In this document: piece by piece, positions 1 through 33,874 of the stretch
How positions within the stretch are numbered: position 1 is the stretch's first letter
How the letters are laid out: every line of letters starts with the position of its first letter
Assembly (NCBI GenBank): GCA_033764955.1
Contig: JANRIL010000038.1
Span: 1 to 64,000, forward strand
Source of the DNA: Cyanobacteriota bacterium
GTDB taxonomy: Bacteria; Cyanobacteriota; Cyanobacteriia; Thermostichales; Thermostichaceae
Direction: 5' to 3'
Length of the DNA stretch: 64,000 bases
The notes under the pieces: model-generated
Told to the model about the DNA's origin: nothing
What the model saw: the letters and a program-made list of their open reading frames with translations, nothing else
Database searches by the model: none
Position numbers and translations under genes: made by a program

Positions 1-173
1 AACGTTTCTGGCATCACCCCACACAATCGCTTGAACTGGGCACGGGGTAGTTGCTGGATTTCTTCATATCTCATGGGTTAGGGGTGGGTCTACCTTCTCC
101 CTGGGTCTATCCCCCTTTTCCCTCTTTTGCAAGAAGCTCATTGTCGAGCCGTGAGTGTCAGCGGCGAAGGCAC

Positions 174-269
174 GCCGAACCAGGCGCTGCACCTGACCGG
201 CGGGGCATGAGCACTTCTCGTGACCATAGCTCACCGAGCCCGCCCGGCAGGTGAACTGTGTCGTTAGCT
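174..269 (+). repeat. attC site 1
   Basis: GCCGAAC...gcacctgaccggcggg...cccgcccggcaggtgaac...GTTAGCT imperfect hairpin. Confidence 0.8.
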
Positions 270-328
270 AGCTTCGGTTACAGGTGGTGGCGCTGTTTGC
301 AAATTATCTGTTAATGTCCAAGTTTTGG

Positions 329-661
329 TCAGACAACAGCTTTTGGGTCAGTGCCATACCATCTCACAGCTAGTTCATAAAGATGATCGAGTGTTCCCGA
401 TAACTCTTTACCGCGTTCAGTGAGCGTGTAAGTGACCTGCGGTGGAATTGTGGGTTCGTGGTGACGATGAACCAGTTCAAGAGACTCTAAGAGCCTTAAC
501 CGTTCCGTCAGTACTTTGGTCGAGATACCTTCTACCTTTCGTTTGAGTTCTCCAAATCGTTGTGAACCATTGGTATCTAGAACCCAGAGGATATAAAGTG
601 TCCACTGTCCTGAAATTTGTTTGAGCAATATTTCCAACGGGCAGCATTGAGTTTCAGTCAT
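329..661 (-). CDS. HxlR-family winged-helix transcriptional regulator
   Basis: CPLE..L..ISGQW...RFGELKR..GISTKVLTERL...IPPQVTYTLTERG. Confidence 0.9.
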   Translation of the reverse strand: MTETQCCPLEILLKQISGQWTLYILWVLDTNGSQRFGELKRKVEGISTKVLTERLRLLESLELVHRHHEPTIPPQVTYTLTERGKELSGTLDHLYELAVRWYGTDPKAVV

Positions 662-682
662 GGTAGGGGGTTCATAAGGGAT

Positions 683-725
683 AGGTAGTTACCATTTGGT
701 TCCTACTTTACTTTAGTAACTACCT
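683..725. promoter_or_regulatory. Inverted repeat, probable HxlR operator between divergent hxlR and azoR
   Basis: AGGTAGTTAC-N23-GTAACTACCT, perfect 10-bp arms. Confidence 0.6.
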
Positions 726-769
726 GTTTTATTGTCGAGGGGACAGATAAAATTTCTGATTCCACCCCT

Positions 770-1390
770 ATGAACAGTATCTTGCATCTTGATTCGAGTC
801 CTCGTGGTGAGCGCTCTAGATCTCGCCAACTTGCTAGCAACTTTATGGAAGCTTGGCGGGATCTCCATCCGAACGCAACGGTTACGTATCGTGACTTGCG
901 CCAAACTCCAATTCCTCACATTACTGAGGATTGGATTGAAGCTGACTTTACGCCACCAGAAGCACTTAGCCTAGAACTGCGAGAACAGCTCAAGTTATCT
1001 GATGAGTTGGTTGACGAGTTTCTAGCTGCCGATCGATGTCTATTCAGTGTGCCGATGTATAACTTTAGCGTGCCCTCAAATTTCAAAGCCTACATCGATC
1101 AAATTGTGCGTGTAGGTCGAACGTTTACGTATGAGAATGGTCAAGGTAAAGGGCTAGTCAGCGGAAAGAAAGTTGTATTCATTACATCACGAGGTGTTGA
1201 ATATAGTTCTGGTTCACCCTATGAGGGATGGGATGCTCAAGAGCCAGCTTTGCGTAATATTTTTCAATTTATGGGAGTAACAGATATTCAATTTATTCAT
1301 GCCAATGGTTTAGACATGGGAGACGACGCGCGGAAAAGGGGGATGGATGAAGCACAATCTAAAATTCAAAAATTAGTGGCTGATTGGTAG
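770..1390 (+). CDS. azoR: FMN-dependent NADH-azoreductase / quinone reductase
   Basis: SSPRGERSRS, PMYNFSVPS.FKAYID, TF.Y...G..GL. Confidence 0.9.
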   Translation: MNSILHLDSSPRGERSRSRQLASNFMEAWRDLHPNATVTYRDLRQTPIPHITEDWIEADFTPPEALSLELREQLKLSDELVDEFLAADRCLFSVPMYNFSVPSNFKAYIDQIVRVGRTFTYENGQGKGLVSGKKVVFITSRGVEYSSGSPYEGWDAQEPALRNIFQFMGVTDIQFIHANGLDMGDDARKRGMDEAQSKIQKLVADW

Positions 1391-1402
1391 CGCCAGCCAG
1401 CT

Positions 1403-1461
1403 AGCCAACGTGATGCAGCGAACGGCAAGAGGTTATTTGCCGCTGCATTTTGCCGTTAGCA
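1403..1461 (+). repeat. attC site 2 (short form)
   Basis: AGCCAAC..atgcagcg.acggcaaga ggttatttgccgctgcat..GTTAGCA; flank GCTAGCCAAC is 9/10 complementary to GTTAGCTAGC at 263. Confidence 0.75.
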
Positions 1462-1474
1462 GTCAGGAAAAACT

Positions 1475-1963
1475 GTGTCACCAGAAGAAATTATTCAATA
1501 CATATGCAGTAATCTCCCAGATGTAGTCCCAAAAGCTAGTTGGGGCGAAACGTCACTGTTTTATAATCCTGGTCGCGTGTTGCCACACGGTGTTTATTTT
1601 TGCACCATCAAACAACATAATGGCGAAAACGACCAAGCCTCAAATCTTGATCGAGAAGAGGTGTTTAGAGTTGCTATCGGTCTTCATCCCACAACCTACG
1701 TCCGCTTATTTGGTCAGAAACCAGTACGCCCTAGCAAGGGTGGTATTGTTATAACGGGTCACGATTTTACAAAGTTAAATGAGCTGATGCCGCATCCGAT
1801 TTATGCTTGGATGTCCTGGGTACAAATACTTTCCCCTAGCCGAGACAAGTTTGAGGAGGTCTTCTCTTTAATTGAGGAGGCGCATCAGGAGGCAGTCAAA
1901 AAGTTTGAGAAAAAGACTGCTAACAATTCGGTTGCAGCGGAACGGTTCAGTTCTGTTAATTGA
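1475..1963 (+). CDS. DUF6194-like hypothetical protein (stop codon lies inside attC)
   Basis: WGETSLFYNPG..LPHGVYFCTIK...MPHPIYAWMSWVQILSPS. Confidence 0.75.
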   Translation: MSPEEIIQYICSNLPDVVPKASWGETSLFYNPGRVLPHGVYFCTIKQHNGENDQASNLDREEVFRVAIGLHPTTYVRLFGQKPVRPSKGGIVITGHDFTKLNELMPHPIYAWMSWVQILSPSRDKFEEVFSLIEEAHQEAVKKFEKKTANNSVAAERFSSVN

Positions 1964-2005
1964 GTTGTCAAGCTTACCTGCGTCCGCTGAACCGAGCCGT
2001 TATGC
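1918..2005 (+). repeat. attC site 3
   Basis: TGCTAAC..cggttgcagcgga...tccgctgaaccg..GTTATGC; GACTGCTAAC is the exact complement of GTTAGCAGTC at 1455. Confidence 0.85.
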
Positions 2006-2150
2006 CGCAGAGTCCTCGGTTGGGGCGCAGCCGGAATCTCATCTGTTGGCGTCTGAGGCTAGATGACATAAAATCTTGAGCCAGTAGTGCTTGTAGGTGA
2101 TAACGGCAGCAGCAATTTACAATAGACCAAGAGTTGCTGGGAAAGGGCTG

Positions 2151-2372
2151 ATGACGTTACAAGAAATTCAAAATCAGGCATTGCAGTTGCCTACTGGCGA
2201 TCGCTGGCAGTTGGTACAAGTTCTTCTAGACTCGTTGAAGCGGGAAGCAAACCTCAAGCCCAAGCGGAAAAACTTGTCGCGTTTGCGAGGTGTTGCTAAG
2301 ATTTCGGCAGTCACAGGAGAAAGTAACGCCCAAGCGGATTATGCAACCTATCTGACCAAAAAGTATCAATAA
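2151..2372 (+). CDS. Putative antitoxin (small protein upstream of PIN toxin)
   Basis: About 73 aa, overlaps PIN start (TAATG), ends LRGV...YL.KKYQ. Confidence 0.7.
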   Translation: MTLQEIQNQALQLPTGDRWQLVQVLLDSLKREANLKPKRKNLSRLRGVAKISAVTGESNAQADYATYLTKKYQ

Positions 2373-2788
2373 TGCGAGTTCTGATTGATACCAATGTTGT
2401 TCTTGATTTTTTACAAGAACGGGAGCCGTTTGTGAAAAATGCAGCAAGATTATTTGAGCGCATTGATGCTGGGGAAATTGAGGGATTTATCGCAGCAACA
2501 ACAATAACCAACATTTACTACATTGTTCGTAGGGCAGCAGGTAGGGCAGTGGCGCAAGATGCAGTTACTCAGGTATTAAGCGACTTAAACATCTGTACAG
2601 TCGATTTAGAGGTGCTAGAACAAGCTCTTGCATTAGATTTCGAGGATTTTGAAGATGCAGTACAGTATGCTTGTGCGGTGGCGTATGGTGTTGATGCGAT
2701 CGTTACTCGTGATACCACTGGATTTACAAATTCGGAAGTTCCTGTAGTCTTGCCTGAAGACATTGGTACAATCAATGGTGCTGAGTGA
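2372..2788 (+). CDS. PIN-domain toxin (VapC-like)
   Basis: VLIDTNVVLD...DFEDAVQYACA...IVTRD. Confidence 0.9.
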   Translation: MRVLIDTNVVLDFLQEREPFVKNAARLFERIDAGEIEGFIAATTITNIYYIVRRAAGRAVAQDAVTQVLSDLNICTVDLEVLEQALALDFEDFEDAVQYACAVAYGVDAIVTRDTTGFTNSEVPVVLPEDIGTINGAE

Positions 2789-2813
2789 AGAGATTGAAGC
2801 AGCGGTCAGCACG

Positions 2814-2873
2814 CCATAACCAGTTGCTGCACCGGAACACCAGTCGTTAGCCCGCTTTGCTTCAGAGTTACTG
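2814..2873 (+). repeat. attC site 4, right arm truncated or degenerate
   Basis: CCATAAC cagttgctgcaccgga... left arm present; ACGCCATAAC is 8/10 complementary to GTTATGCCGC at 1999; no matching right arm. Confidence 0.6.
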
Positions 2874-3130
2874 AGTTGTTGAAAGCTTGAAAATCCTGTA
2901 ATTGAAGATCTTCGAGAGAAAAATCTCTATTCTAATACTCCTGGATTCTGCGTTACCTAACCTATATCGGGATGGTTCAAAAGCTTTGCAGAGATTGCCT
3001 TTGAACCGAAATATAGTCCTATTAAAAGCCGAAGGTATATTTTGACAAAAATTTGACGTACTCCCCTCAAGCTAGTTATAGAATCTGGAGAACAGCAGGC
3101 AATTCAGGGATCAGTTATGACTGAGGCGCA

Positions 3131-6100
3131 ATGTCTTCAATCTTGCAAGTTAAATTGTTAGGTGAGTTTTCTATCACCTATGGAGATCGCCCGGTTGCAA
3201 GTATTAGCTCAGCGCGATCGCAAGCATTACTGGCTTATTTGATCCTCCATCGACAGTTGCCCCAATCCCGTCAGCGGCTTGCCTTTCATCTATGGGAGAG
3301 TTCGACCGATACCCAAGCAAGATCCAATCTTCGTAAAGAGTTGACCTACTTGCGTCGTGCTTTACCCAACTCTGAGCAATTTTTGCTGGTTGAGTCAAAA
3401 ACGCTGCAATGGTCGCCTACAGCTCCATTCGCCTTAGATATCTTGGAGTTTGAAGAGGCTGTAACAGCCGTAAAGGGGGCTGAACCTCAGACCATACCAA
3501 CCTTGCTTCAAAAAGCGATCGCGCTCTACAGAGGCGACTTGCTGCCAAGCTGTGAAGATGAGTGGATCATTTCTGACCGTGAACGCCTTCAGCAACTACA
3601 TCTCAGTGCTTTAGAACAATTAGTTGACCACTTACAGCAACAGCAGGACTATCACACAGCCCTGAACTATGCTCAGCAACTCCTGCGCGTCGATGCCTAC
3701 AAGGAAGCGACCTACTGTACGTTGATGCAGCTCTACAGTCGGAGTGGCGATCGCGCGAATGCACTAAAAACCTACTATCGCTGCATGACACTGTTGCGGG
3801 AGGAGTTGGGAGTTGACCCCAGTGTCACCACGCGCAAGCTATATGAGCAACTATTACAAGACAATCACGTAGCGGAACAGGACGCGCCAACGAGAGCAAA
3901 TGCGCCAACGCCTCTATCGGCAATCGGAGCGATCGCCGCCGCCTCACCTTTGGTTGGACGAGAGCGAGAGTGGGCATTCGTTCAACAATGGTCTACCAGT
4001 GCAACGAATGGCTCTGAAGTGTTACTGGTGGTTGGTGAACCTGGTATTGGTAAAACACGGTTGCTAGAGGAATTTCGATCGACCCTGGCAGAGAATCAAA
4101 TTCTTTGGGGGCGCGGATTTGCAGCAGAGATGGTGCGACCCTACGGTATTTGGACAGATGCGTTGCGCTCTTTCGGTGTCGGGCAAGGTCGATCGCCAAT
4201 GGTGCCAATTCCACCGGAACTAGGCGTGTTGCTTCCAGAATTGGGAGCATCTGGGTCGGATCTCCCAGACCGCAGCCATTTGTTTGATGCAGTGGTGCAA
4301 CTGTTCGCTGCACAGGCAAACCATGCCCCATTCCTCGTGGTTCTAGATGACATTCAGTGGATTGATGAAGCGTCATCGGCGCTGTTGCATTATGCTGTGC
4401 GCTTGTTAAGTCATCTTCCCATCCAGTTTGCTTGTACAGCATGTGTTGGCGAGTTGGAAAAAAATGCAGCGATCGAGCGAATGTTACAGGCACTCAGGCG
4501 GGAACAACGGCTGCGAGTTATGGAGTTACAGCCTTTAGATCGCGGCCAAACCGCAGATTTAATTCGTAGTATTCAAGCAATCAACTCCTCAGATATATCC
4601 CTTGAATTGGTTGATCAAGTCTTTAGCGAAAGTGGCGGTAATCCTCTCTTTGCTCTGGAAGTTGCTCGTGCCTGGTCACACGATCGAGTGGCTCATGCAA
4701 GCAATTTAGAAGCACTGATTCGCGATCGCCTGCAACGTCTCGATCCATCCGCACGGGAACTTCTTCCCTGGGCAGCAGCATTAGGACGGAGCTTTAAATC
4801 AACCGTAGTGGCACAGGTTTCAGACTATGCCCTACCGCAACTGCTAACGGCGATCGAGCAGCTTGAACAACAAACAATTATCCGCCCCAGTATTTCTGCC
4901 AATAATGAACCGAGGTACGACTTTGTTCACGATATTGTCCGTCAAACGGTCTATCGGCAGCTATCAGAACCCCGTCGTCAGTTAGTGCATTTGCAAATTG
5001 CCCATAAGTTAAATCAACAGCTAACCGCCGATAGTGCATTGGTGAGTGATGTGGCACATCATGCGGCGTTGGGAGGCGACCACGAGTTAGCGACCTCCAC
5101 TGCTCTAGCGGCAGCCGAACGCTGTCTGAAACTGTTTGCTTATGCAGAAGCCGCTAAATTGGCGACACAGGGAATTCAGCACTGTCAATCCTTGGATCAG
5201 CGAACTCGAATTCGGCGGCAGTTGCAGTTACTCCGAGTTGTGGCGTTGGCAGGGGTAACTGGCGATCGCGCTGCTCAGTTAGAAGCTGAGGTGAATCAGT
5301 TGATGGATGAAGCCAGACAATTGGGATTAAGAGATGAAGAGGCGATCGGGTTAGAAGCGGTTGGGCTAGTGTATTACCATCAGGGCAACTTGATCAATAC
5401 AAGGGAACACTCCCTGCGAGCAGTTGAAATCAGTCAGTCAGCTAGCCCTGCGACAGCAGCCCGTTTGCTGGCCCATAGTGGTTCTTGTCTGGCTGAACTG
5501 GGGCACGACATTGTTCGAGCAGAAGCATTATTGCTAGAAGCACAATCGCTAGCAGCTAGAGTTGGCTTAGAACTATGTGATCTTTACAGCGGACTGGGAG
5601 CAGTGCGCCTCTATCAGGGTTGTTTTGATGATGCTCGATCGCTATTTAAGCAAGGCTGGCAACTCTCCTTAGCGGAGCAAGACCACTGGCGCGAGTTTTA
5701 TTGCCTGAGCTACCTCGTTATGCTAGAGGTGGAAACGGGTCATTTAACTGATGCATTGACGTTTTGCCAGCAAATGGCAGTTGTCTCTGCTCAGATTCAA
5801 GGTGAGGGCAGCGAAGGAGCAATTGCAGCTGCACTAGATGCTTTGATCCACTACAAGCTCCACCAACCCAAAGCCGAATCCCACTTTCAACGGGCAGTTG
5901 TTCGACTGCAACAGGTGGATGCCAAGCGAATGCTGTCCTATGTGCTGATTGGTGCTGCTGAGGTTGATTTGGCACAGCGACGTTGGGAGTTAACATTGGC
6001 ACGGGCTGAAACTGCGTTACAAACGGCTCAGATCATGCAACATGCTAATGAAATTGCTTTAGCTGGGGCAGTGTTAGCGCAGGCGACTTTAGCATTGGGA

Positions 6101-6199
6101 CAATCAGAACAAGCAGCACAGTGGCAAACTTTTCTGGAGCAAACTGATCGCCATGTTCTCAGTTTTCGTGCCCAAAATGCAATTAATCAAACAACCTAG
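3131..6199 (+). CDS. SARP/AfsR-like regulator: wHTH-BTAD + AAA ATPase + TPR
   Basis: N-terminal LLG.F...ARSNLRKEL..LR; ALYRGDLL; EELGVDPS; Walker A GEPGIGKT; LDDIQWID; SGGNPLF. Confidence 0.9.
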   Translation: MSSILQVKLLGEFSITYGDRPVASISSARSQALLAYLILHRQLPQSRQRLAFHLWESSTDTQARSNLRKELTYLRRALPNSEQFLLVESKTLQWSPTAPFALDILEFEEAVTAVKGAEPQTIPTLLQKAIALYRGDLLPSCEDEWIISDRERLQQLHLSALEQLVDHLQQQQDYHTALNYAQQLLRVDAYKEATYCTLMQLYSRSGDRANALKTYYRCMTLLREELGVDPSVTTRKLYEQLLQDNHVAEQDAPTRANAPTPLSAIGAIAAASPLVGREREWAFVQQWSTSATNGSEVLLVVGEPGIGKTRLLEEFRSTLAENQILWGRGFAAEMVRPYGIWTDALRSFGVGQGRSPMVPIPPELGVLLPELGASGSDLPDRSHLFDAVVQLFAAQANHAPFLVVLDDIQWIDEASSALLHYAVRLLSHLPIQFACTACVGELEKNAAIERMLQALRREQRLRVMELQPLDRGQTADLIRSIQAINSSDISLELVDQVFSESGGNPLFALEVARAWSHDRVAHASNLEALIRDRLQRLDPSARELLPWAAALGRSFKSTVVAQVSDYALPQLLTAIEQLEQQTIIRPSISANNEPRYDFVHDIVRQTVYRQLSEPRRQLVHLQIAHKLNQQLTADSALVSDVAHHAALGGDHELATSTALAAAERCLKLFAYAEAAKLATQGIQHCQSLDQRTRIRRQLQLLRVVALAGVTGDRAAQLEAEVNQLMDEARQLGLRDEEAIGLEAVGLVYYHQGNLINTREHSLRAVEISQSASPATAARLLAHSGSCLAELGHDIVRAEALLLEAQSLAARVGLELCDLYSGLGAVRLYQGCFDDARSLFKQGWQLSLAEQDHWREFYCLSYLVMLEVETGHLTDALTFCQQMAVVSAQIQGEGSEGAIAAALDALIHYKLHQPKAESHFQRAVVRLQQVDAKRMLSYVLIGAAEVDLAQRRWELTLARAETALQTAQIMQHANEIALAGAVLAQATLALGQSEQAAQWQTFLEQTDRHVLSFRAQNAINQTT

Positions 6200-6275
6200 C
6201 ACGTGCAAGGTATCACTTCTAGCGCTTGCACAAGTGATTAAATTGAATGGTTCAAATGATGCTTAAAGGAGAACG

Positions 6276-6809
6276 ATGGTGTCGCTAGTAATTGTTGAAA
6301 CCGTTACTGAACAGATCTTAACCGACGAACTATTAGCATCTGCGGATCGGCAAATTACTCCTTGTATACAAGCCCGCAATGCAACGTGGCGCTATTCGCT
6401 TTTATCCAGCGATCGCCATCGCATGATTTGTATCTACGATGCACCCGATGCCGAATCAATCCGAGATGCCTATCGTCGAGGCGGGCTTGCCTCTAGTCGA
6501 GCCTGGGCAGGATATGTTATTCAGCCAGAAGGGACTACTCTACCAACCTGGAATGAATCTACCCTCAAGATTCAGGAAAGCACTTATCCGACGGGTCTTA
6601 CTGATGAGCAATGTAACAAGGAGCGACAGCATTTACTGCCCTGCTATGCAGAGTACGGCGTTGAATGGATTCGCTCCTATGTGTCGCTCGATACAACCCG
6701 TGTGTTATGTGAACTGAATGCACCCGATGCCGAAGTAATTCGCCATGCCCACCGTCGGTTTGGTTTTCCCTGTGATCGCGTCTGGTCAGCTCAAGTTTTT
6801 GGTCCTTAA
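6276..6809 (+). CDS. Tandem DUF4242 (SCO4226-like) domain protein
   Basis: Two repeats of W..S..S.D..R..C...APDAE.IR.A.RR.G. Confidence 0.75.
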   Translation: MVSLVIVETVTEQILTDELLASADRQITPCIQARNATWRYSLLSSDRHRMICIYDAPDAESIRDAYRRGGLASSRAWAGYVIQPEGTTLPTWNESTLKIQESTYPTGLTDEQCNKERQHLLPCYAEYGVEWIRSYVSLDTTRVLCELNAPDAEVIRHAHRRFGFPCDRVWSAQVFGP

Positions 6810-6833
6810 AATCAGTGTTGGTTTATGTTTCAG

Positions 6834-6892
6834 GGAGAGAGCAATTTGGGAGCGGTTTGAGAGCGGTTTGAGAGCGATCGGCTTGCTAACTT
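6834..6892 (+). promoter_or_regulatory. Four 11-bp-phased direct repeats (core GAGAGC) plus -10-like TAACTT; probable SARP-type activator site
   Basis: ggagagagcaa tttgggagcgg tttgagagcgg tttgagagcga upstream of the methyltransferase. Confidence 0.6.
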
Positions 6893-6940
6893 GATTTCAG
6901 ATGCAAAGACCGTATCAGAAAACTGTTAGCGAAGGAGCTA

Positions 6941-8032
6941 ATGATGACCACACAAACCGACGACGCAATTCAACTTGACACTGCCAAAACCGAAGCATTC
7001 GCCGATCGCATATTGACCATTCTCAACAGCGGCGCACTTGCCCTGATGACTTCGATCGGGCATCGCACCGAACTGTTTGACACGATGGCAGAGCTACCAT
7101 CTTCTACCAGCCAGCAAATTGCCGATGCCGCCGGACTGCACGAACGCTACGTGCGGGAATGGCTCGGCGCAATGGTGACAGGTCGTGTGGTGGAGTATGA
7201 CCCGATCGCCCAAACCTATACCCTGCCTCCAGAACACGCCGCACTGTTGACCAGAGCAGTCGCTTCAGATAATATCGCCGTCTTTGCCCAATACATTCCG
7301 CTGCTGGGATCGGTAGAAGAACAGATCATTAATTGCTTTTACAAAGGTGGGGGTGTTCCCTATTCTGAGTACAAGCGCTTTCATGCGGTAATGGCCGAAG
7401 ATAGCGGTCAAAGCGTGGTCTCTTCGTTATTTGAGCATGTGCTGCCGCTGATTCCCGGACTGGTCGAAGCATTGCAGCAGGGAATTGACGTTCTAGATGT
7501 TGGTTGTGGCAGTGGACGGGCGTTGAACACAATGGCAGCCGCGTTTCCCAATAGTCGCTTTACTGGCTATGACTTTTCTGGAGAAGCCGTTGCCAATGCG
7601 AATGCCGATGCTCAACTGCACAAGCTCAGCAACATTCAGTTTCAGGTGAAGGATGCTGCCACGATCGCAGAGTGCGATCGCTACGACTTCATCACCACGT
7701 TTGATGCGGTTCACGATCAGGCAAAACCCGATGTGGTGTTGCACAACATCTGCCGTGCCCTGCGTCCGGATGGCGTTTATTTAATGCAGGATATTCACGC
7801 CTCGACCGATGTAAGCGGCAATCTCGACCATCCCATTGGCTCATTGCTCTACACCATTTCATGTATGCACTGTATGACAGTTTCGCTAGCCTATGGTGGC
7901 ATGGGCTTAGGGGCAATGTGGGGAAAAGAAAAAGCCCTGGAACTATTGGCGAATGCAGGATTTCAGCAAGTGGAAATTAAGCAGCTTACCCACGACTTTC
8001 AGAACGACTACTACATCATTCGTAAATCGTAA
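6941..8032 (+). CDS. Class I SAM-dependent methyltransferase with N-terminal wHTH (Rv2258c-like)
   Basis: AGLHERYVREWL; VLDVGCGSG; FDAVHD; HCMTVSLA. Confidence 0.9.
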   Translation: MMTTQTDDAIQLDTAKTEAFADRILTILNSGALALMTSIGHRTELFDTMAELPSSTSQQIADAAGLHERYVREWLGAMVTGRVVEYDPIAQTYTLPPEHAALLTRAVASDNIAVFAQYIPLLGSVEEQIINCFYKGGGVPYSEYKRFHAVMAEDSGQSVVSSLFEHVLPLIPGLVEALQQGIDVLDVGCGSGRALNTMAAAFPNSRFTGYDFSGEAVANANADAQLHKLSNIQFQVKDAATIAECDRYDFITTFDAVHDQAKPDVVLHNICRALRPDGVYLMQDIHASTDVSGNLDHPIGSLLYTISCMHCMTVSLAYGGMGLGAMWGKEKALELLANAGFQQVEIKQLTHDFQNDYYIIRKS

Positions 8033-8192
8033 ACAACCATGTGCAAACTTTGTTCATTCGCAGTACGGTATCCCCGTATTCGCCAAGATTCGCTTGTCTT
8101 GAATCTCAGCCAATTTGCCACTGCGGTTACAGCAAAACCTGTGACTGAACCCTCTCAACCCCAATCCACACCATCTTGGAGTAGTCAAAACG

Positions 8193-8873: not shown

Positions 8874-9172
8874 CGAATAGATTTTTAGTCATTTTGATCA
8901 AGACATTCAAAATCTTCCCGTACAAGCATTTTAGCAATTTTACCGCTATCTCTCACAGGTCTAATACACGTATTATCAGGAGAACATGATCATGTCTACA
9001 CAGCAAAATTTGAATGCAGAACTCAATGCAGAATTCTCAAGTAATCAGGATCTAATCACAACCGAGTTGATACCGATCATTGGAACATTCAAAGGAGATT
9101 TTCTCGTAGGGAGCGCGATCACCCAGAAGTTGAAGTTCTCAAAGAACTCCAACTTTTACAGACCAGATAATA

Positions 9173-9697
9173 ATGAACAATCACCTGAACAATATGCAAA
9201 TCAAACCTTATCACCCTAGTCACTTGAATGTCGTGGTTCGTCTTTCACTGCGGGCATGGGAACCTGTTTTCGATTCACTGAAACAGGTGCTCAATCCCGA
9301 TGTGTACCAGGTCTTCTACCCAGAACATTGGCGAGTCAGCCAACAACAATCAGTAGAGGCTGTCTGCACAGCGGAAGACACAAAGGTATGGGTTGCTAGT
9401 GTCTCCGACCGACCAGAGGTTAACGATGTAGGCTCTACTGTGGGTTTTGTAGCCGTGAAACTACACTTAGAAGACAGCATGGGTGAAATTTACATGGTCG
9501 CTGTCGATCCGGACTTTCAAGGTCGCGGCATTGGCAGTACTCTGATAAAATTTGCACTGGCTTGGCTAAAGGAATCTGGGATGTCTATTGCGATGGTTGA
9601 GACTGGAAGTGATCCTGGTCATGCACCAGCCCGTCACACCTATGAGAAGGTCGGTTTCGAGCTGTTTCCAGTTGCTAGATATTTCAAGAAGCTCTAA
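9173..9697 (+). CDS. GNAT-family N-acetyltransferase
   Basis: VAVDPDFQGRGIG; TG.DPGHAPAR.TYEKVGF (start may be the later MQIKPY). Confidence 0.85.
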   Translation: MNNHLNNMQIKPYHPSHLNVVVRLSLRAWEPVFDSLKQVLNPDVYQVFYPEHWRVSQQQSVEAVCTAEDTKVWVASVSDRPEVNDVGSTVGFVAVKLHLEDSMGEIYMVAVDPDFQGRGIGSTLIKFALAWLKESGMSIAMVETGSDPGHAPARHTYEKVGFELFPVARYFKKL

Positions 9698-9791
9698 GTG
9701 TACATGTAAGGCCCAAAGTTTACTTTGCTCTATGGCTAGTCAATCATGATGCAATTTGGTAGAAATTAGAAACATCGCGTAGTAGTCAGCC

Positions 9792-9880
9792 AGCTAACAA
9801 CGCAGTGGACTGGACGGAATAGAGTCTTTTTGTGCTTCGTTTCAGTGTTACTTACCGCCGCTCATTTTAGCTCTTTGATA
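9792..9880 (+). repeat. attC site 5, degenerate R' end
   Basis: AGCTAAC..gtggactggacgg...ccgccgctcat...; expected GTTAGATGTC appears as ctttgatatc. Confidence 0.6.
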
Positions 9881-9887
9881 TCATAAC

Positions 9888-10439
9888 ATGCACGCGAGCG
9901 ACACCCACTACGTTGAAGATCTACGCCATCGGTTCAACACTGGCGAGAGGTTGGAGTTTGTCTTCTTCTGGAGGCACCATCCCAGCAAGACTGGCGTCTC
10001 CGCATCGTGCCTCAGCCAGTGGTACAGCTCTCCGTTCTTCGTAGAAGGCACACGCTACCCGACTGCCGAACACTTCATGATGGCCGAGAAGTCTGCACTC
10101 TTCGGTGACCACGCAACAAGAGAGCTCATCCTCCAAGTGCCGGACCCTGGGGCAGCCAAAGCATTGGGGCGGCAAGTTCGCGGCTTCGACGAGGCGGCGT
10201 GGCTGGAAAGAAGGTTTTCGATCGTCAAACGCGCCAGCCAAGCAAAGTTTTCGCAGAACCCCGAGCTAGGCGAATTCCTTAAGCAAACGGGGGCTTGTAT
10301 CCTCGTGGAGGCGAGCCCCACGGATAGAATTTGGGGCATCAGTCTCGCGGAAGATGACGAGAAGTCCAGCGATCCGAATTGTTGGCGCGGCCTCAACCTC
10401 TTGGGCTTTGCACTCATGGAGGTCCGTAATGACATCTAA
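9888..10439 (+). CDS. NADAR (YbiA-like) family protein
   Basis: CLSQWY; YPTAEHFMMAEK; AKALGRQVRGFD; VEASPTDRIWGI; GLNLLG.ALM.VR. Confidence 0.92.
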   Translation: MHASDTHYVEDLRHRFNTGERLEFVFFWRHHPSKTGVSASCLSQWYSSPFFVEGTRYPTAEHFMMAEKSALFGDHATRELILQVPDPGAAKALGRQVRGFDEAAWLERRFSIVKRASQAKFSQNPELGEFLKQTGACILVEASPTDRIWGISLAEDDEKSSDPNCWRGLNLLGFALMEVRNDI

Positions 10440-10523
10440 CCCGCTAGTCAACACTGACGCCTTGCGGCGTCCGGCCGCGCAACGGCCTCCTCTCGTAAGT
10501 CGCCGGTTACATGCACGTTAGCC
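10434..10523 (+). repeat. attC site 6
   Basis: ATCTAAC (overlaps NADAR stop)...gtcaac.ctgac...gtcgccggttac...GTTAGCC. Confidence 0.8.
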
Positions 10524-10620
10524 TGCTTAAGCCTCTATGGTGATGAATTCAGTAGATCTGGGTAAGAGGCAGCCTGTAAATCAGTTGTCTCAGCCTCGCT
10601 CAAAATAAATTCTTAGGTTT

Positions 10621-10647
10621 TGTCGAAATGGCGATCGTTGGCTCGTC
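10621..10647 (+). promoter_or_regulatory. ECF42-type promoter
   Basis: TGTCGA-N17-CGTC upstream of yciI-gst-ecf42; matches the known ECF42 target motif. Confidence 0.7.
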
Positions 10648-10708
10648 ATATAAGTAGAAGCATAAAGAACCTTATGCTTTCACTTCACTACAAAACGAGT
10701 ACATTCTC

Positions 10709-11050
10709 ATGAAATACGCCATTCTGGTTTACGAAACCGAGCAAGACTTCTCCAATCGGGAGAAGCACATGCCCGCCTATAATGCCTATTCTCAAGCCTT
10801 AGCGGAGGCAGGAGTGGCAGCGGGTGGTGCGGCTCTCCATCCCAGTCATACCGCGACAACGCTCCGTCTGCGAAACGGGCAACGGAACGTTCAAGACGGT
10901 CCCTATGCCGATACCAAAGAACAACTGGGCGGCTTGTTTATCATTGATGTTGCTGATCTGGATACGGCTTTAGACTGGGCATCCCGCTGTCCGGCTGCGA
11001 GTAATTGCGCTGTGGAAGTCCGGCCTCTGTTACCTATGAACCCGGCTTAG
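10709..11050 (+). CDS. YciI/DGPF-family protein
   Basis: DGPYADTKEQLGG.FIIDV.DLD.AL.WA.RCP...VEVRP. Confidence 0.9.
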   Translation: MKYAILVYETEQDFSNREKHMPAYNAYSQALAEAGVAAGGAALHPSHTATTLRLRNGQRNVQDGPYADTKEQLGGLFIIDVADLDTALDWASRCPAASNCAVEVRPLLPMNPA

Positions 11051-11061
11051 GAGGTGACAGC

Positions 11062-11679
11062 ATGAAACTCTACTATTTCCCCGCGTCACCCAATAGCCGC
11101 AAAGCCCATGCCGTGGCGATTCAGCTTGACCTTCCCTTAGACCTGAGACTTGTAGATTTGCAAAAAGGAGAACAACGAACTCCAGAGTTCATGCAGTTGA
11201 ACCCGACTGGACGAACCCCTGTGTTGCAAGATGGTGAGTTTGTGCTGTGGGAGTCTACAGCAATTATGCAATATTTAGCTAGTCAGATCTCTAACTCCCT
11301 TTGGCCGGAAAACGTTCAAAGTCGGGCAGACATCATGCGCTGGCAGAGTTGGCAACTGGCTCACTGGCAGTCAGCCTGTCAGCCGTTGCAATTTGAGCGA
11401 GTGGTGAAGCAAATTTTGCAACTGGGAGATCCGAACCCTGAGATTGTGGAACAGGCTACTCAACAGTTTCATCAAGAAGCTACTGTCCTGAATCAGCACC
11501 TGGCAGAGCGTACCTACCTGATCAATGAAACCCTGACATTGGCTGACTTTTCGGTGGCAAGTAACCTGACCTATGCTGGACCAGGGCAGTTCCCCCTTGA
11601 GCGTTATCCCCATATTCAAGCCTGGTATGCTCGGATCGAGCAGTTACCAGCCTGGCAACAGACTAACCCCACAGGTTAA
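11062..11679 (+). CDS. Glutathione S-transferase
   Basis: GGAGG RBS; SPNS; LNPTGRTPVL.DG; WESTAI.QYL; TLAD. Confidence 0.9.
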   Translation: MKLYYFPASPNSRKAHAVAIQLDLPLDLRLVDLQKGEQRTPEFMQLNPTGRTPVLQDGEFVLWESTAIMQYLASQISNSLWPENVQSRADIMRWQSWQLAHWQSACQPLQFERVVKQILQLGDPNPEIVEQATQQFHQEATVLNQHLAERTYLINETLTLADFSVASNLTYAGPGQFPLERYPHIQAWYARIEQLPAWQQTNPTG

Positions 11680-11685
11680 GCCCAC

Positions 11686-12918
11686 ATGGATGCACGTCGA
11701 GCGGCAGAAATGGCAGTCCGCAATTCCTATGGACAGTTGGTTGCTTATTTGGCATCTCGAACCAGAGATGTGGCGGCAGCCGAAGATGCCCTCGGCGATG
11801 CGTTCCTGATGGCTTTGAAAACCTGGCCTGAGACGGGAGTTCCCAAAAAACCTGAAGCCTGGTTAATGGTGTCAGCCCGGAATCGGTTGACTGATGCGGC
11901 ACGACGCGATCGTGTTTATGAAAATATTCTGGAAACACTGAAATCGAACAGTCTGCGATCGCAACCTGAATCCCCCAATCCTTCGGAGATATTTCCAGAC
12001 GATCGGCTTAAATTACTCTTTACTTGCGCCCATCCAGCGATCGATGCAACGATGCACACGCCATTGATGCTACAAACGGTACTCGGTCTAAATGCAGCAC
12101 AGATTGCCTCCGCATTTCTGGTTGCCCCCGCTACCATGAGCCAGCGACTGGTGAGAGCCAAGGCCAAAATTCGGGATGCGGGCATTGCGTTTGAATTGCC
12201 GGAAGTTGATGAATTGCCGAGCCGTTTAGCGGCTGTGTTAGAAGCCGTTTACGCTGCCTACACCAATGCCTGGGAAACAGTCAATGGGAGTGACCCCCGC
12301 CATCGGGGGTTGGCTGAAGAGGCAATCTGGCTGGCTCGTTTGTGTGTTCAGCTCATGCCGCAAGCACCGGAAGCACGGGGATTACTGGCACTCATGCTGT
12401 ACTGTGAAGCCCGACGCGATGCTCGTCGCAGTGCAAACGGTGCCTACATCCCTTTAACCCAGCAAGATACCCAGCTTTGGTCGCAGCCCATGATTGATGA
12501 AGCGGAATCCGAGCTTGCTCACGCCGCTACCTTCAAACAGTTGGGACGATTTCAACTGGAAGCAGCCATTCAATCGCTCCATACCCAACGTGCCGTTACT
12601 CAGCAGGTCGATTGGGAAACACTGGTGGTGTTGTATGAAGGCTTAATTCAGCTTTCGCCCACGTTTGGTGCATTCGTCAGTTATGCGGCTGCGATCGCAG
12701 AAGCCAAAGGATTACAGCAAAGTTTGGTCTATCTCAACACACTGCCAACTGAAGCTGTGAAAAACTACCAACCCTATTGGGCACTAAAAGCTCATTTATC
12801 GCAGCAGCTAGAGCAGAAAGCTGAAGCTCAGCAGGCTTATTCACGCGCGATCGGATTAACAGAAGACGCTACAGTTCGTAAATTTCTTCTCCATCAGTCT
12901 TCACTGTTGGATGAGTAA
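11686..12918 (+). CDS. ECF sigma factor, ECF42 group (C-terminal DUF6596/TPR extension)
   Basis: AAEDAL; PDDRLKLLFTCAHPA; QRLVRAKAKIRDAGI; PEARGLLALML. Confidence 0.9.
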   Translation: MDARRAAEMAVRNSYGQLVAYLASRTRDVAAAEDALGDAFLMALKTWPETGVPKKPEAWLMVSARNRLTDAARRDRVYENILETLKSNSLRSQPESPNPSEIFPDDRLKLLFTCAHPAIDATMHTPLMLQTVLGLNAAQIASAFLVAPATMSQRLVRAKAKIRDAGIAFELPEVDELPSRLAAVLEAVYAAYTNAWETVNGSDPRHRGLAEEAIWLARLCVQLMPQAPEARGLLALMLYCEARRDARRSANGAYIPLTQQDTQLWSQPMIDEAESELAHAATFKQLGRFQLEAAIQSLHTQRAVTQQVDWETLVVLYEGLIQLSPTFGAFVSYAAAIAEAKGLQQSLVYLNTLPTEAVKNYQPYWALKAHLSQQLEQKAEAQQAYSRAIGLTEDATVRKFLLHQSSLLDE

Positions 12919-12923
12919 CCGCA

Positions 12924-13011
12924 GGCTAACACCACCCATGCACACCGACCACCGAAAGTTTATTGGTTATGCTACAAAGGTTTCTGCGGCGGGTGATGGT
13001 CACCGTTAGCT
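12924..13011 (+). repeat. attC site 7
   Basis: GGCTAAC..ccatgcacaccg...cgggtgatgg..GTTAGCT; GCAGGCTAAC is the exact complement of GTTAGCCTGC at 10517. Confidence 0.85.
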
Positions 13012-13144
13012 GGCTTGAGCTATCGGTGGGGGCATAGCTAGGAGGTAGTCGGTGAGGCAATTGCTCTGGAGAAATTGAGGTATTTTGGCATAATAGTTTC
13101 AACTTAGCAATTGCTAGAATCCGTACACTGAGCAGAAACCTTTA

Positions 13145-14041
13145 ATGTCATTACCCAGCAGTACTAACTTAACTGAGCCAAGAAATGACCAGAGATCGGT
13201 AGTTGTATCTGACGACTTCGTTATCCCGTTTAGCACTCAGACAAAATGGTGTTCAGAATTTGTTTTTGAAGTTCATCGTTTGTCCCCTACGGAAGTTACT
13301 GAACACGATATTGAAGGGCATCACCTATTAATCAATCTAGGTCAATCAGTCCGCTGTGGTTGGCAGACAGGTGGGCGCAGGTATGAAAGCACCTTTCCAC
13401 TTACTGGAATTTGCCTTCAATCTCACGGAGAAACCAATGCTTCTTTTTGGCAAGACGAGATGAGAGTAGCCGTGATCGCTATTTCACCTAAATTCATCAA
13501 GACTATTCTTAGCGATCGTACCCCTGCTGCAATTGATACCTTTGTCGAGCAACATTGCATCCAAGATGGCATCGCCTATCACCATGCCAGGACACTTGCT
13601 GCTGAACTTGTCACACCCAATGAACCGCTCTACGCTGAATCTCTCTGTCTCTCTTTGACGCTGCATCTCTTGACTGCTTACAGCGGAAAAGCTGGAAAAC
13701 CCCTTATTCCTAAAGGCAAGCTATCTGCAATACAGCTGAGAGCGGCGATCGATTTGGCACAGACTCAGTTAGGCAACGAATTAACCCTTGACCAATTAGC
13801 ATCTGCTGTCAATATATCCCCTTTCCGTTTCACTCGCTTGTTCAAGAACACTACAGGGGTTTCGCCCCACCAGTTTATTCTGCGATTGCGCTTAGAGCGA
13901 GCAAAGCGTCTATTGCTCATGCGTCAACTTTCACTGATGGAAATTGCCCAAGCTGTAGGATTTTTTGACCAAGCGCACTTTACTAATACATTTCGACGCG
14001 CCTTTGGTATGACTCCAAAAGCATTCGTTCAGTGCCTTTAA
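13145..14041 (+). CDS. AraC-family transcriptional regulator
   Basis: C-terminal HTH: F.RLFK.TTG.SPHQF...EIA.AVGFFDQAHFT..FRR.FGMTP. Confidence 0.92.
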   Translation: MSLPSSTNLTEPRNDQRSVVVSDDFVIPFSTQTKWCSEFVFEVHRLSPTEVTEHDIEGHHLLINLGQSVRCGWQTGGRRYESTFPLTGICLQSHGETNASFWQDEMRVAVIAISPKFIKTILSDRTPAAIDTFVEQHCIQDGIAYHHARTLAAELVTPNEPLYAESLCLSLTLHLLTAYSGKAGKPLIPKGKLSAIQLRAAIDLAQTQLGNELTLDQLASAVNISPFRFTRLFKNTTGVSPHQFILRLRLERAKRLLLMRQLSLMEIAQAVGFFDQAHFTNTFRRAFGMTPKAFVQCL

Positions 14042-14129
14042 ACTAAGCAAGAATTTCCAAGATTTATCAGCAGCATTTGGCATATCTTTTTACTACCCAT
14101 TAATTTTTGAGGAAGCCAGGTAAGGAATT

Positions 14130-15023
14130 ATGCCAGACATCAGCCGCCGTCAAATGCTTACAACTGGAGCGATCGGAATCGCTGGATTTACAACTGCAAT
14201 GGCGACTCAAATAGCTCATGCCAATACCCAAAATCCGTCAGAACCTCAGGCAAGTGTCAATCCCAACGGTCGCTTTGTAGGTAAAGTCGTCCTCATCACC
14301 GGAGCCACCTCAGGAATTGGAGAAGCTACTGCACGGGCATTTGCATCTGAGGGCGCTACGGTTCACTTCTGCGGTCGGCGCGAAGCATTGGGAGAGCAAG
14401 TCGCTCAAAGTATCCGGGATGCAGGCGGTAAAGCTACTTATCAACGAGCCGATGTGCGAATTGAGGAAGATGTTAAAGCGTTTGTGAATACTTGTGTGGA
14501 GCAGTATGGGCGGCTAGATATCGCCTTTAACAATGCTGGCATCTTCATGACTCCTGCTGAGATTCAAGATATTCCGCTGGATAACTTCGTGGACATCATC
14601 ACGACCAACACAGTGGGAGAGTTTCTCTGCATGAAGTACGAAATTCCCCAAATGCGGCGGCAGGGGGGTGGCAACATCATCAACATGGCATCGGTTGCTG
14701 GACATGTTGGTTTCCGCACGACGGCTCACTACAACGCCAGTAAGCATGGCGTAATTGGACTCACCAAAGCAGCGGCTCAAGAAAACGCTGCCCATAATAT
14801 TCGCATCAATTCCATCTCGCCGTTGGTAGTAGATACGCCTCAATTGCGTGAATCCTTTGCTTTTCAAGGATTCACATATGAACAAGCCGTACAGGGATTT
14901 GTCACCAAACGAATTATGACCCCGCATGAAATGGCAGAAGCTGTTATGTTTTTAGCATCTAATCAAGCGACATCAATGACGGGTATGGATTTGGACGTTA
15001 CTGGAGGGCAATTGGCAGGTTAG
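14130..15023 (+). CDS. Short-chain dehydrogenase/reductase with twin-arginine signal-like N-terminus
   Basis: SRRQML...AHA; TGATSGIG; NNAG; YNASK. Confidence 0.9.
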   Translation: MPDISRRQMLTTGAIGIAGFTTAMATQIAHANTQNPSEPQASVNPNGRFVGKVVLITGATSGIGEATARAFASEGATVHFCGRREALGEQVAQSIRDAGGKATYQRADVRIEEDVKAFVNTCVEQYGRLDIAFNNAGIFMTPAEIQDIPLDNFVDIITTNTVGEFLCMKYEIPQMRRQGGGNIINMASVAGHVGFRTTAHYNASKHGVIGLTKAAAQENAAHNIRINSISPLVVDTPQLRESFAFQGFTYEQAVQGFVTKRIMTPHEMAEAVMFLASNQATSMTGMDLDVTGGQLAG

Positions 15024-15082
15024 CAATCGCTAATTCCACTAGCCCTCACCCGATCGCTTGGCACAGTAAAACAGGAGAAATT

Positions 15083-16126
15083 ATGCAATACACAACTCTT
15101 GGAAAAACTGGTTTAGTCATATCTCGTCTTTCCTTTGGGGCGATGACCTTTGGTGAAGGGCAACTGGTTCCTGGCGTGACCAACAGCATCGATCAGACAA
15201 TCGCGGATCAAATGGTGGGTCGCGTCATGGAGGCTGGAATTAACCTGTTTGATACCGCTGATGCTTACACCAATGGACAATCGGAAATCATGCTAGGTAG
15301 GGCACTTGCTCATTGTCGTGATGAGGTTGTTATTGCTACAAAATCAGGGTTTCGATCGGGTAACGCCATTACGGATACAGGATCGTCCTATCGACATATC
15401 ATGATGGCGGCAGAAGCCAGTCTAAAGCGGTTAAACACTAACTACATCGATCTCTATCAGCTTCACATTCCCGATCCAATCACACCGTTAGAGGAAACCT
15501 TACGCGCGTTAGAGGATCTGGTGCGTCAGGGCAAAGTGCGCTACATCGGCTATTCCAACTTTCCAGCCTGGAAAGCCGCCAAGATGGTGGGTCTTCAGAA
15601 ACACTACAACTATGCTCAGTTTGTCGCGGCTCAAATGTATTACTCGCTGCTGGGGCGTGATTTGGAACATGAAGTTGTGCCATTTGTGGAAGATGCAGGC
15701 ATTGGAGTATTGGTGTGGAGTCCTTTGGCAGGTGGCTTTCTAAGCGGCAAGTATACCCGTGAAAACCCAACACCAGAGGGAGCCAGACTGAATCAATTTA
15801 AGCTGCCGCCTATTGATGTGGAGCAGGGCTATGACGTGGTGGATGTCATCCAGCAAATTGCTCAGGAACACGATGCATCTCCGGCTCAGGTGGCGATCGC
15901 CTGGATTCTCACGAAACCGTTTATCTCGTCTGTAATTGTTGGCGCTAATAAAATGCACCAGCTTGAAGACAACTTGAAAGCCGCCGATCTCAGGCTCTCT
16001 GCCGCAGAGATTCACCAACTGGATACCCTCACTACTCCACCATCGCTCTATCCTGGCTGGATGCAGGCAATGGGTTGGGATGCCAAAGTCAAAGCAGCAT
16101 TTGATTTAGATTCTAAAAATCAGTAA
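15083..16126 (+). CDS. Aldo/keto reductase
   Basis: DTADAY; IATK; YIDLYQLH; GKVRYIG.SN; WSPLAGG. Confidence 0.92.
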   Translation: MQYTTLGKTGLVISRLSFGAMTFGEGQLVPGVTNSIDQTIADQMVGRVMEAGINLFDTADAYTNGQSEIMLGRALAHCRDEVVIATKSGFRSGNAITDTGSSYRHIMMAAEASLKRLNTNYIDLYQLHIPDPITPLEETLRALEDLVRQGKVRYIGYSNFPAWKAAKMVGLQKHYNYAQFVAAQMYYSLLGRDLEHEVVPFVEDAGIGVLVWSPLAGGFLSGKYTRENPTPEGARLNQFKLPPIDVEQGYDVVDVIQQIAQEHDASPAQVAIAWILTKPFISSVIVGANKMHQLEDNLKAADLRLSAAEIHQLDTLTTPPSLYPGWMQAMGWDAKVKAAFDLDSKNQ

Positions 16127-16166
16127 AGAAGTTGGGTTAAGAGCAGGGGCGATCGCAGATATCGCA

Positions 16167-16252
16167 AGCTAACAAGTCGATGAAGCGGACGGGCGAGAGA
16201 TCTTGATTGGGATACCAAGGTTATCTGCCGCCGCTTATCTTGGTCGTTATCG
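16167..16252 (+). repeat. attC site 8 (terminal)
   Basis: AGCTAAC..gatgaagcggacgg...ccgccgcttatc..GTTATCG; GCAAGCTAAC is 9/10 complementary to GTTAGCTGGC at 13005. Confidence 0.85.
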
Positions 16253-16293
16253 GGGTTTGTGATGAGAGTTGGGCAGGGATCCCTCTCCCCCCA

Positions 16294-17812: not shown

Positions 17813-17856
17813 GGGATCCCCCTCTAAGATCGCGGTAGTGTAAAAAACCAACTGTG

Positions 17857-33761: not shown

Positions 33762-33781
33762 GCCAAGGTCTATCATCAATT

Positions 33782-33867
33782 CGATAACGTTCCCGACCAG
33801 CAGCGGCAGATAACCTTGAACTCAGCACCAGCGGTTCTCGTCCGTCCGCACCAACGCAGTGTTGGGC
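33782..33867 (-). repeat. attC site (terminal), homologous to attC 8
   Basis: Reverse complement shares gcggacggRcgaga, caaggttatctgccgcYgct and cgttatcg with 16167-16252. Confidence 0.85.
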
Positions 33868-33874
33868 TGCGCTG

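Follow-up and report, generated by a model that had tools for sequence, protein, structure and literature searches.

A partly decayed integron cassette array in a cyanobacterium, with cassettes that pair regulators with enzyme genes

The window analysed here comprises the first 64 kb (64,000 nucleotides) of contig JANRIL010000038.1, called C11 below, from a cyanobacterial genome of 3.8 Mb in 48 contigs (Cyanobacteriota bacterium, Thermostichaceae, GCA_033764955.1). Near its left end, between positions 172 and 16254, attC-like sites separate groups of genes in the manner of an integron. Integron cassettes are usually pictured as small (about 0.5-1 kb), promoterless and single-gene, with expression set by the distance from the promoter Pc. 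An earlier sequence-only reading of the same DNA saw instead an array of operon-sized cassettes, each joining a regulator to its targets, and supposed that they form a system for shuffling stress-response circuits. We followed up these claims with profile and covariance searches, and with DNA searches of 40 relatives and then of 400 genomes of the class. C-numbers denote contigs of the window's own genome and G-numbers the other genomes compared.

The attC sites and the cassettes

Eight attC-like hairpins on the plus strand had been reported. All eight were placed correctly and on the right strand, and six of them score with a covariance model of attC (R1, described below; run on the window with filters off), but only five fold as long imperfect hairpins (folding with DNA parameters), the other three being decayed. 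Site 172-271 is a long variant with an intact hairpin (26.6 bits, E 1e-4; -22.6 kcal) that matches a site of G014 at 76%, and its R' sequence, GTTAGC at 263, opens cassette 1. The site that ends cassette 1 (1401-1463) is short, at 63 nt, and keeps its hairpin (18.3 bits, E 0.02; -12.4 kcal); its counterpart in G285, within a 93% identical cassette, is a full site of 91 nt and 65.9 bits. Intact hairpins also end cassette 2 (1916-2007, 64.7 bits), the ECF cassette (12922-13013, 49.7 bits) and the AraC cassette (16165-16254, 80 bits).

Cassette 1 (264-1455, plus strand, 1.2 kb) holds an hxlR gene on the minus strand (329-661; Pfam HxlR, 1.2e-24) and, divergent from it across a region of 108 bp, an azoreductase-like flavodoxin-fold gene on the plus strand (770-1390; Pfam Flavodoxin_2, 6.5e-52) whose azoreductase score in NCBIfam is below the cut-off. 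Cassette 2 (1456-1998, plus, 0.5 kb), with a single DUF6194 gene (1475-1963; Pfam, 9.2e-51), fits the typical single-gene type. The 2.5 kb ECF cassette (10518-13005) carries, all on the plus strand and by Pfam, a YCII gene (10709-11050), a GST gene (11005-11679) and a gene for an ECF sigma factor with a DUF6596/TPR extension (11686-12918), while the 3.2 kb AraC cassette (13006-16254) carries on the same strand an AraC regulator (13145-14041), an SDR gene (14130-15023) and an aldo-keto reductase (AKR) gene (15083-16126). The three larger cassettes hold two, three and three genes, and hxlR is antisense, so that they depart from the type of the single promoterless open reading frame. The pairing of a regulator with enzymes claimed for the 1.2, 2.5 and 3.2 kb units is thus borne out by Pfam, but not the cassette nature of a fourth, roughly 7 kb block, to which we return below. 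NCBIfam matches on the genes of the window were all under their cut-offs except for TIGR02464 (NADAR), and we therefore use no equivalog names.

Each of these cassettes has its boundaries marked by a footprint in the sequence. The ten bases that start a cassette had been said to complement the ten that end it, and the figures proved exact: 9 of 10 for cassette 1 (263/1409), 10 of 10 for cassette 2 (1455/1924), 10 of 10 for the ECF cassette (10517/12930) and 9 of 10 for the AraC cassette (13005/16173). Among 4084 pairs of sites taken from different contigs, the probability of at least 9 matches is 0.028 and that of 10 is 0.005. Consecutive sites on other contigs average 8.0 (10 of 23 reach at least 9), whereas within a single attC the flanks of R'' and R' match no better than background (mean 5.65, n=57). 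Because consecutive sites score high and same-site flanks do not, the signal ties the start of a cassette to its own end, as a circular intermediate would predict, and by this footprint the 1.2, 2.5 and 3.2 kb units are cassettes. Pairs beyond those originally listed are weaker (8/10 for 1998/2820 and for 2846/9797, both counted by eye; 6/10 for 1998/9797).

The identity of the repeat family itself rests on a model made for this lineage. A plain inverted-repeat search missed most attC sites, and pattern-plus-fold scanners gave nothing under strict rules and, when relaxed, 619 matches spread evenly over the genome, an unspecific result that was dropped. Since Rfam gave no match and the simple scanners were unspecific, we used nhmmer, seeded with six hairpins beside the two intI genes of the genome and on other contigs, and the covariance model R1, which was built from 20 aligned attC sites, none of them from C11, with a structure of R''/R' plus an inner stem. 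In the R1 alignment 82% of cells are paired, compared with 28-50% in slid controls, and both-side changes number 63 against 27.8 in shuffles, none of 500 shuffles reaching the observed value. The terminal AAC and GTT do not vary, and the R''-L'' arm has two single-base bulges. Applied to the whole genome, R1 returned 74 matches at E<=0.01. The motif GTTAGC occurs 32 times in the window (19.8 expected).

Two full intI genes are present in the genome (C9:19-960, 463 bits; C38:63588-64529, 451 bits), both over the TIGR02249 cut-off, and there are at least four further intI fragments, three of them at contig ends (contigs concerned: C9, C38, C36, C4 and C30). Their closest relatives are encoded in Pseudanabaena and Pseudanabaenales assemblies (77-79% amino-acid identity), and judging by these the host is probably Pseudanabaena-like; IntI relatives were encoded in 585 of 599 candidate stretches, and among the 80 listed they are mostly cyanobacterial. 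Arrays of R1 matches begin beside both intI genes and run away from them on the expected strand. R1 has 47 matches in 61 loci around IntI in other cyanobacteria; 46 of these are on the strand opposite to intI and upstream of it, and the remaining one is a reverse reading of one of the others. Because arrays stand beside intI genes both here and in other cyanobacteria, which is the architecture of integrons, the repeat family is attC, and the row of sites in the window forms a genuine cyanobacterial integron cassette array, now partly decayed. On C11 it counts as a CALIN, an attC cluster without an integrase. With two intact intI genes, fragments and 74 attC-model matches on many contigs, the genome is unusually rich in integron material for its 3.8 Mb.

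Recurrence and putative regulatory sequences of the cassettes

Cassettes 1 and 2 occur side by side in G285 and G228 at 92-93% identity. The copies are homologous precisely from GTTAGCTAGC onwards; upstream of it, the three genomes have unrelated sequences. Within cassette 1, the hxlR gene is read against the direction of the array and must therefore have a promoter of its own. Between the divergent genes lies an inverted repeat, GGTAGTTAC/GTAACTACC (684-724), around TACT-N7-AGTA (704-718); this core sits within a 9 bp inverted repeat and does not vary among the five copies aligned, even though two of them have an overall identity of only 73-74%. The arrangement is that of an HxlR-type regulator divergent from a flavin reductase gene with a conserved palindrome between them, and we regard 684-724 as a candidate HxlR operator, to which binding is predicted.

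The ECF cassette stands between attC sites in G085, G397 and G289, and its own attC is present in G157 as well. The attC sites upstream of it differ among genomes, and homology starts at GTTAGCCTGCT; at the other end the window, G085, G397 and G289 share the conserved attC of the cassette itself and diverge directly after CGTTA. A soil-metagenome contig of 4547 nt (run X1) covers 10516-13009 with 94 differences (~96% identity) and is unlike the window on both flanks, its upstream loose end resembling the 3' arm of another attC, and contigs of run X3 follow the window as far as 13008 and 13015 and then continue with different sequences. Five further joints reported in run contigs lie off the attC sites and have short sides, and were not used; when sequencing runs were queried with sampled words, no run contained more than 21% of them, so that none of the strain itself was found, and no RNA run was listed.

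The same YCII-GST-sigma order is also found without any attC, in G388, G160, G225, G387, G278 and G032 (72-85% identity). The attC of the operon begins 1-14 nt past the stop codon. In a tree of 11 copies of the block, those with attC fall into two well-supported groups, and at least two changes of state are needed.

In the ECF sigma gene, Sigma70_r2 and DUF6596 pass the Pfam cut-off, r4_2 (19.4 bits) is below it and TPR is weak; an NCBIfam superfamily match is likewise below the cut-off. The sequence-only reading had spoken of an ECF42 operon, and the factor may be ECF42-like; that group is marked by sigma regions 2 and 4 with a long sensing extension at the C-terminus, no anti-sigma gene, a neighbour of the YCII type and an ECF promoter under autoregulation. 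Here a YCII gene lies upstream. A motif resembling ECF-type promoters, TGTCGA-N17-CGTC (10621-10647, plus strand), lies 62 nt upstream of the YCII start codon. Its elements TGTCGAAAT and TCGTCATA do not vary among the five copies aligned, one of which is the G388 copy that lacks attC, and we take the motif as a putative promoter of the ECF cassette. Sigma factors of this class with C-terminal extensions are described in a preprint (bioRxiv 10.1101/2020.01.30.927608) as working without an anti-sigma factor.

For the AraC cassette, which is flanked in the window by two intact attC sites, the record is thinner. Of five other loci, four have an AraC-family gene ahead of SDR(-SDR)-AKR, while L069, in G383, reads AraC-SDR-SDR with no match to AKR. 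G148 has a close AraC unit (88% amino-acid identity) that includes two additional genes and lies on a 5.8 kb contig devoid of attC, and the order AraC-SDR-AKR also occurs without attC in G334. An attC directly follows the AKR gene in G376, and in G257 a 3.2 kb unit with a different AraC (31% amino-acid identity) is bracketed by attC sites.

The sequence-only reading had proposed to look for homology to other genomes that ends at the G/TT crossover of the sites. This was found for the HxlR cassette (5' side), the ECF cassette (both sides) and a toxin-antitoxin cassette described below, and partly for the AraC cassette; the exception is the 7 kb block. The expectation of an operator or promoter in most cassettes was realised only in the two conserved motifs of the HxlR region and the ECF cassette, while a generic sigma-70 scan lends it nothing (see below). 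A terminator scan of the window gave 15 sites against 16.9 expected, not above chance.

Cassettes of this kind are found elsewhere in the genome too. Seven of the 28 consecutive attC spacings exceed 2 kb, and other inter-attC intervals hold HxlR plus SDR, AraC plus glyoxalase, an AAA ATPase plus a subtilase (3.9 kb) and a ParA-like ATPase plus a Schlafen-like protein (2.4 kb), the last two each with a footprint of 10/10. On the integrase side of C38 (locus L039 = G000:C38:52500-66000, 5444-10769) the first cassettes look like defence modules: one encodes a protein with a minimal CRISPR polymerase (mCpol) domain and a partner of 338 amino acids, and the next is the 3.9 kb unit of AAA ATPase and subtilase. 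Intervals next to IntI in other cyanobacteria include a LysR gene divergent from Flavodoxin_2, a LuxR gene divergent from DJ-1/PfpI with rhodanese, and a TetR unit, with typical defence-like single genes alongside. The 19 spacings beside IntI in these genomes, derived by hand and to be read as upper bounds, have a median of 1937 bp, nine of them exceeding 2 kb. One such interval, in an Elainellaceae assembly, contains an IS110-family transposase (L092, 488-1792), which resembles the situation of the IS1111-attC elements that target attC sites.

The middle stretch and the surroundings of the array

Between 2007 and 12922 there is no intact attC, and consequently, apart from the first two cassettes, only the AraC cassette lies between intact sites in this genome. 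Cassette 3 (1999-2852, plus) is a VapBC-like toxin-antitoxin cassette with genes at 2097-2372 and 2372-2788, the latter a PIN gene (Pfam PIN_3, 2.3e-23). Copies of 82-95% identity occur in many genomes, where they are flanked by full attC sites, and on the 5' side the homology sets in at the R' of the site before the cassette. In the window the cassette ends in an attC remnant (2811-2852, plus) that has no R1 match at E<=10 and a fold of -0.5 kcal. Compared with an 88% identical cassette of G037, the remnant is the same attC minus about 50 nt, comprising the loop and L'; a full counterpart is present also in G340 (the cassettes of the two genomes being 88-90% identical). The PIN toxin gene of the G037 copy (locus L031, region 1951-2235) is 19 nt shorter than that of the window and frameshifted. 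G037, a single contig of 99% completeness, has no TIGR02249 match at E<=1e-20, yet has kept attC-flanked cassettes.

The next 6.9 kb (2853-9789, plus strand, Pfam calls) contain a SARP-like regulator with BTAD and AAA_16 (3131-6199), an SCO4226-like gene (6276-6809), an HTH-methyltransferase gene (6941-8032), a GNAT gene (8193-8873), a small open reading frame (8986-9219) and another GNAT gene (9173-9697). The order of the SARP, SCO4226-like and methyltransferase genes is common to G368, G389, G390 and G219, and these loci contain no attC. The G368 copy, 86% identical, is alike only from about 3020 to about 9120, limits that coincide with neither the remnant at 2846 nor that at 9790. The claim that this block is a cassette is therefore not supported: a homolog of 86% identity lacks attC, and the limits of homology lie off the remnants. 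A GCTAAC-N34-GTTAGC pair at 6885-6930, between the SCO4226-like and methyltransferase genes, is either a minimal attC remnant or due to chance.

Two further poor sites enclose a NADAR gene. The degenerate attC at 9790-9881 (plus) still scores 26.6 bits and its R'' and L'' are recognisable, but the G of R' is lost and there is no stable fold (-3.2 kcal). The site at 10443-10523 (plus) is atypical, GC-rich and branched in its fold, has no R1 match at E<=10, and no similar sequence was found in the genome or at any locus examined; only its R' end, GTTAGCCTGC at 10517, is demonstrably a cassette boundary, since it opens the ECF cassette. The NADAR gene between them (9888-10439, plus; Pfam NADAR 1.2e-50, and over the TIGR02464 cut-off) has a GC content of 0.571, the window having 0.492, and weakly resembles a NADAR anti-phage family. 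Among the 150 listed of 222 matches, in the 400 genomes of the class, no DNA match to it reached E<=1e-30, and the gene may be foreign in origin. From the limits of the SARP block and the remnants we take 1999-10523 to be a stretch in decay where cassettes have become fixed, possibly together with DNA that never was a cassette. The deletion in the toxin-antitoxin attC, together with the degenerate and the atypical site, would have fixed some 8.5 kb in place. The proposed theme of redox and electrophile detoxification is loose, since a toxin-antitoxin pair, two GNATs, a methyltransferase, a NADAR gene and a DUF are part of the array as well.

The contig begins in a repeat end resembling an insertion sequence (1-141), with copies of 99% identity at the ends of C28 and C29. 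The three copies (1 to about 141 in the window) each run on into different flanking sequence, and on these grounds C11 starts inside a multi-copy mobile repeat, which cuts the CALIN on its left. On the right, 1.6 kb downstream of the last attC, a WYL-domain regulator is followed by Cas3, an HD nuclease-helicase (17854-21566), and by Pfam the array abuts a type I CRISPR-Cas locus there. The sequence from the R' of the last attC into a Peptidase_M15_3 gene (16245-16400; gene at 16294-16743, minus strand) is 85% identical both to C14:87106-87259 of the same genome and to a contig of G013. A second attC cluster, in the opposite orientation (33780-36612, minus; sites of 60.8 and 44.8 bits, footprint 10/10), encloses 2.7 kb with four open reading frames, among them a Phd-like antitoxin and a PIN protein.

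A proposed reading: regulatory modules as mobile cassettes

We interpret 172-16254 as a fragment of a chromosomal integron array in which three cassettes are regulatory modules that were captured and moved as units, a reading to which we give a probability of roughly 0.85. The sequence-only reading was right for three of its four large units. The identity of the sites, the cassette boundaries, the gene content, the recurrence in other contexts and the conserved intergenic motifs are matters of observation. Integrases encoded elsewhere in the genome would cut at G|TT within the R' of attC sites of the lineage's own type and release a circle in which the first bases of a cassette re-pair with its own R'', of which the complementarity of 9-10 of 10 would be the footprint. 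The hxlR/azoreductase-like, YCII-GST-ECF sigma and AraC-SDR-AKR modules would each have been captured and moved whole, and each would be expressed from internal promoters under its own regulator, at whatever distance from Pc. Excision at the present day, control by the cassette-borne regulators and the substrates of the enzymes are predictions of this scheme, as is expression that would not depend on position in the array; that the array belongs to a system which shuffles stress circuits is likewise a conjecture from gene content.

Several observations weigh against the reading. Three of the eight sites are decayed or atypical (2811-2852, by internal deletion, 9790-9881 and 10443-10523), which leaves the ECF cassette without an intact upstream partner in this genome, and there is no intI, attI or Pc on C11. 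The tree of the 11 copies of the ECF block is compatible both with capture of an operon and with loss of attC. The genomes searched yielded no close copy of the AraC cassette that is complete to both boundaries, and in the comparable unit of G257 the R'' fails to match the shared start motif. The generic sigma-70 scan yielded 11 promoter sites against 17.9 expected, below chance, and the interval sizes measured beside IntI are upper bounds because the lineage model may miss sites. A scan of the window at Rfam gathering thresholds, with 0 matches, is filed on the same side, although it is uninformative either way.

Could nothing here still move? The array may be a fossil, its attC sites relics and its modules working as ordinary chromosomal operons. 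The contig without an integrase, the three decayed sites, the presence of the same cassettes in genomes with only intI fragments (G085, G285) or no intI match (G037), and the idea, put forward by Cury et al. (2016, PMC4889954), of CALINs as a form of stabilisation are all compatible with this. Yet the genome keeps two intact intI genes and five sites of the array are intact hairpins, a soil metagenome contains the ECF cassette, about 96% identical, in other surroundings, and cassettes are 82-95% identical in other families. This argues that these cassettes moved recently, though not necessarily in this strain, and we regard a fossil array as rather improbable. Much harder to credit is that the repeats belong to another family of dispersed palindromes between genes. 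They are scattered over many contigs and unmatched in Rfam, but next to each of the two intI genes an array begins on the expected strand, and 46 of 47 matches beside IntI elsewhere conform to this; the AAC and GTT ends are invariant, the stem covaries and the two single-base bulges are conserved; and the start/end footprint is specific to consecutive sites, with homology breaking at G|TT. This alternative we consider exceedingly improbable.

The multi-gene units could also be fused cassettes, former single-gene cassettes joined by loss of the attC between them, and not operons captured whole. Cassettes are known to fuse when an attC is lost (Fonseca and Vicente 2022, PMC8876359), and attC loss is visible in the window itself, in the deletion of the toxin-antitoxin site and in the degenerate 9790-9881, the pair at 6885-6930 perhaps being another remnant. 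Against it, R1 with filters off detects no attC remnant between the genes of the HxlR, ECF or AraC cassettes; the gene order and promoter motif of the ECF operon are the same in six attC-less copies; AraC-SDR-AKR occurs without attC in G148 and G334; and hxlR and its partner have one common, conserved divergent promoter region. Fusion origin is thus quite unlikely for the three units. The likeness to fused cassettes as portrayed in section 2.4.4 of that review, where loss of attC joins neighbours, is confined here to the toxin-antitoxin cassette and the block that follows it (at 2811-2852); the ECF, AraC and HxlR units differ in having no internal remnant and in matching operons outside integrons. 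Capture of whole modules in a chromosomal array remains our preferred account.

Much of the setting is known already. Integrons in Cyanobacteria, and CALIN elements, are described by Cury et al. (2016, PMC4889954), according to whom the typical cassette holds one open reading frame and promoters within cassettes are rare. With the CALIN and chromosomal arrays presented there, the array shares attC cassettes in one orientation, an integrase located elsewhere, dispersed clusters and sites that are similar within the genome, but it differs in having several cassettes of 2.4-3.9 kb with two to three genes, a regulator included. A phylum-specific Cyanobacteria attC type and its covariance model have been catalogued (Ghaly et al. 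2021, PMC8352920; Ghaly et al. 2022, PMC9176274), and our R1 matches across many cyanobacterial families agree with that type, the comparison being one of published description. Cassette-borne promoters, toxin-antitoxin cassettes and fused cassettes are reviewed by Fonseca and Vicente (2022, PMC8876359). Like the promoter-bearing cassettes there, ours would be expressed independently of Pc and of position, as predicted above, and the VapBC-like cassette is a standard example of its kind; here there is in addition a dedicated transcription factor (HxlR, AraC or ECF sigma) with target genes. A transcription factor on an integron cassette is also known from the Sydney Tar Ponds (PMC2669170), but this LysR cassette is the regulator (its DNA-binding domain) alone, whereas the cassettes described here carry the regulator along with its targets.

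Neither integrons in cyanobacteria, nor promoters carried by cassettes, nor fused cassettes are therefore new. Word searches of the literature, whose coverage was incomplete and did not extend to supplements, found no description of operon cassettes that combine a regulator with its targets. Mobile cassettes of this make-up look like a new cassette type, uncommon and apparently recurrent. That cyanobacterial integrons routinely traffic whole regulated operons, in place of single promoterless genes, is a bolder proposition, which we hold to be somewhat doubtful. If it were true, it would breach the small-size constraint assumed for the genesis and recombination of cassettes, a constraint asserted in a recent preprint (bioRxiv 10.1101/2024.07.02.601686).

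The ECF operon is instructive in another respect. As it exists with and without attC at 72-85% identity, and as the attC begins only 1-14 nt past the stop codon, the pair could expose the gain or the stripping of an attC on a chromosomal operon. Should it do so, the unsolved origin of cassettes would become testable.

The findings have no bearing on antibiotic resistance. Their meaning lies in the units themselves: cassettes of 2.5-3.9 kb carry a regulator together with its targets and, on our reading, move between cyanobacterial families as units. If this is general in cyanobacteria, their integrons can exchange ready-wired stress-response circuits.

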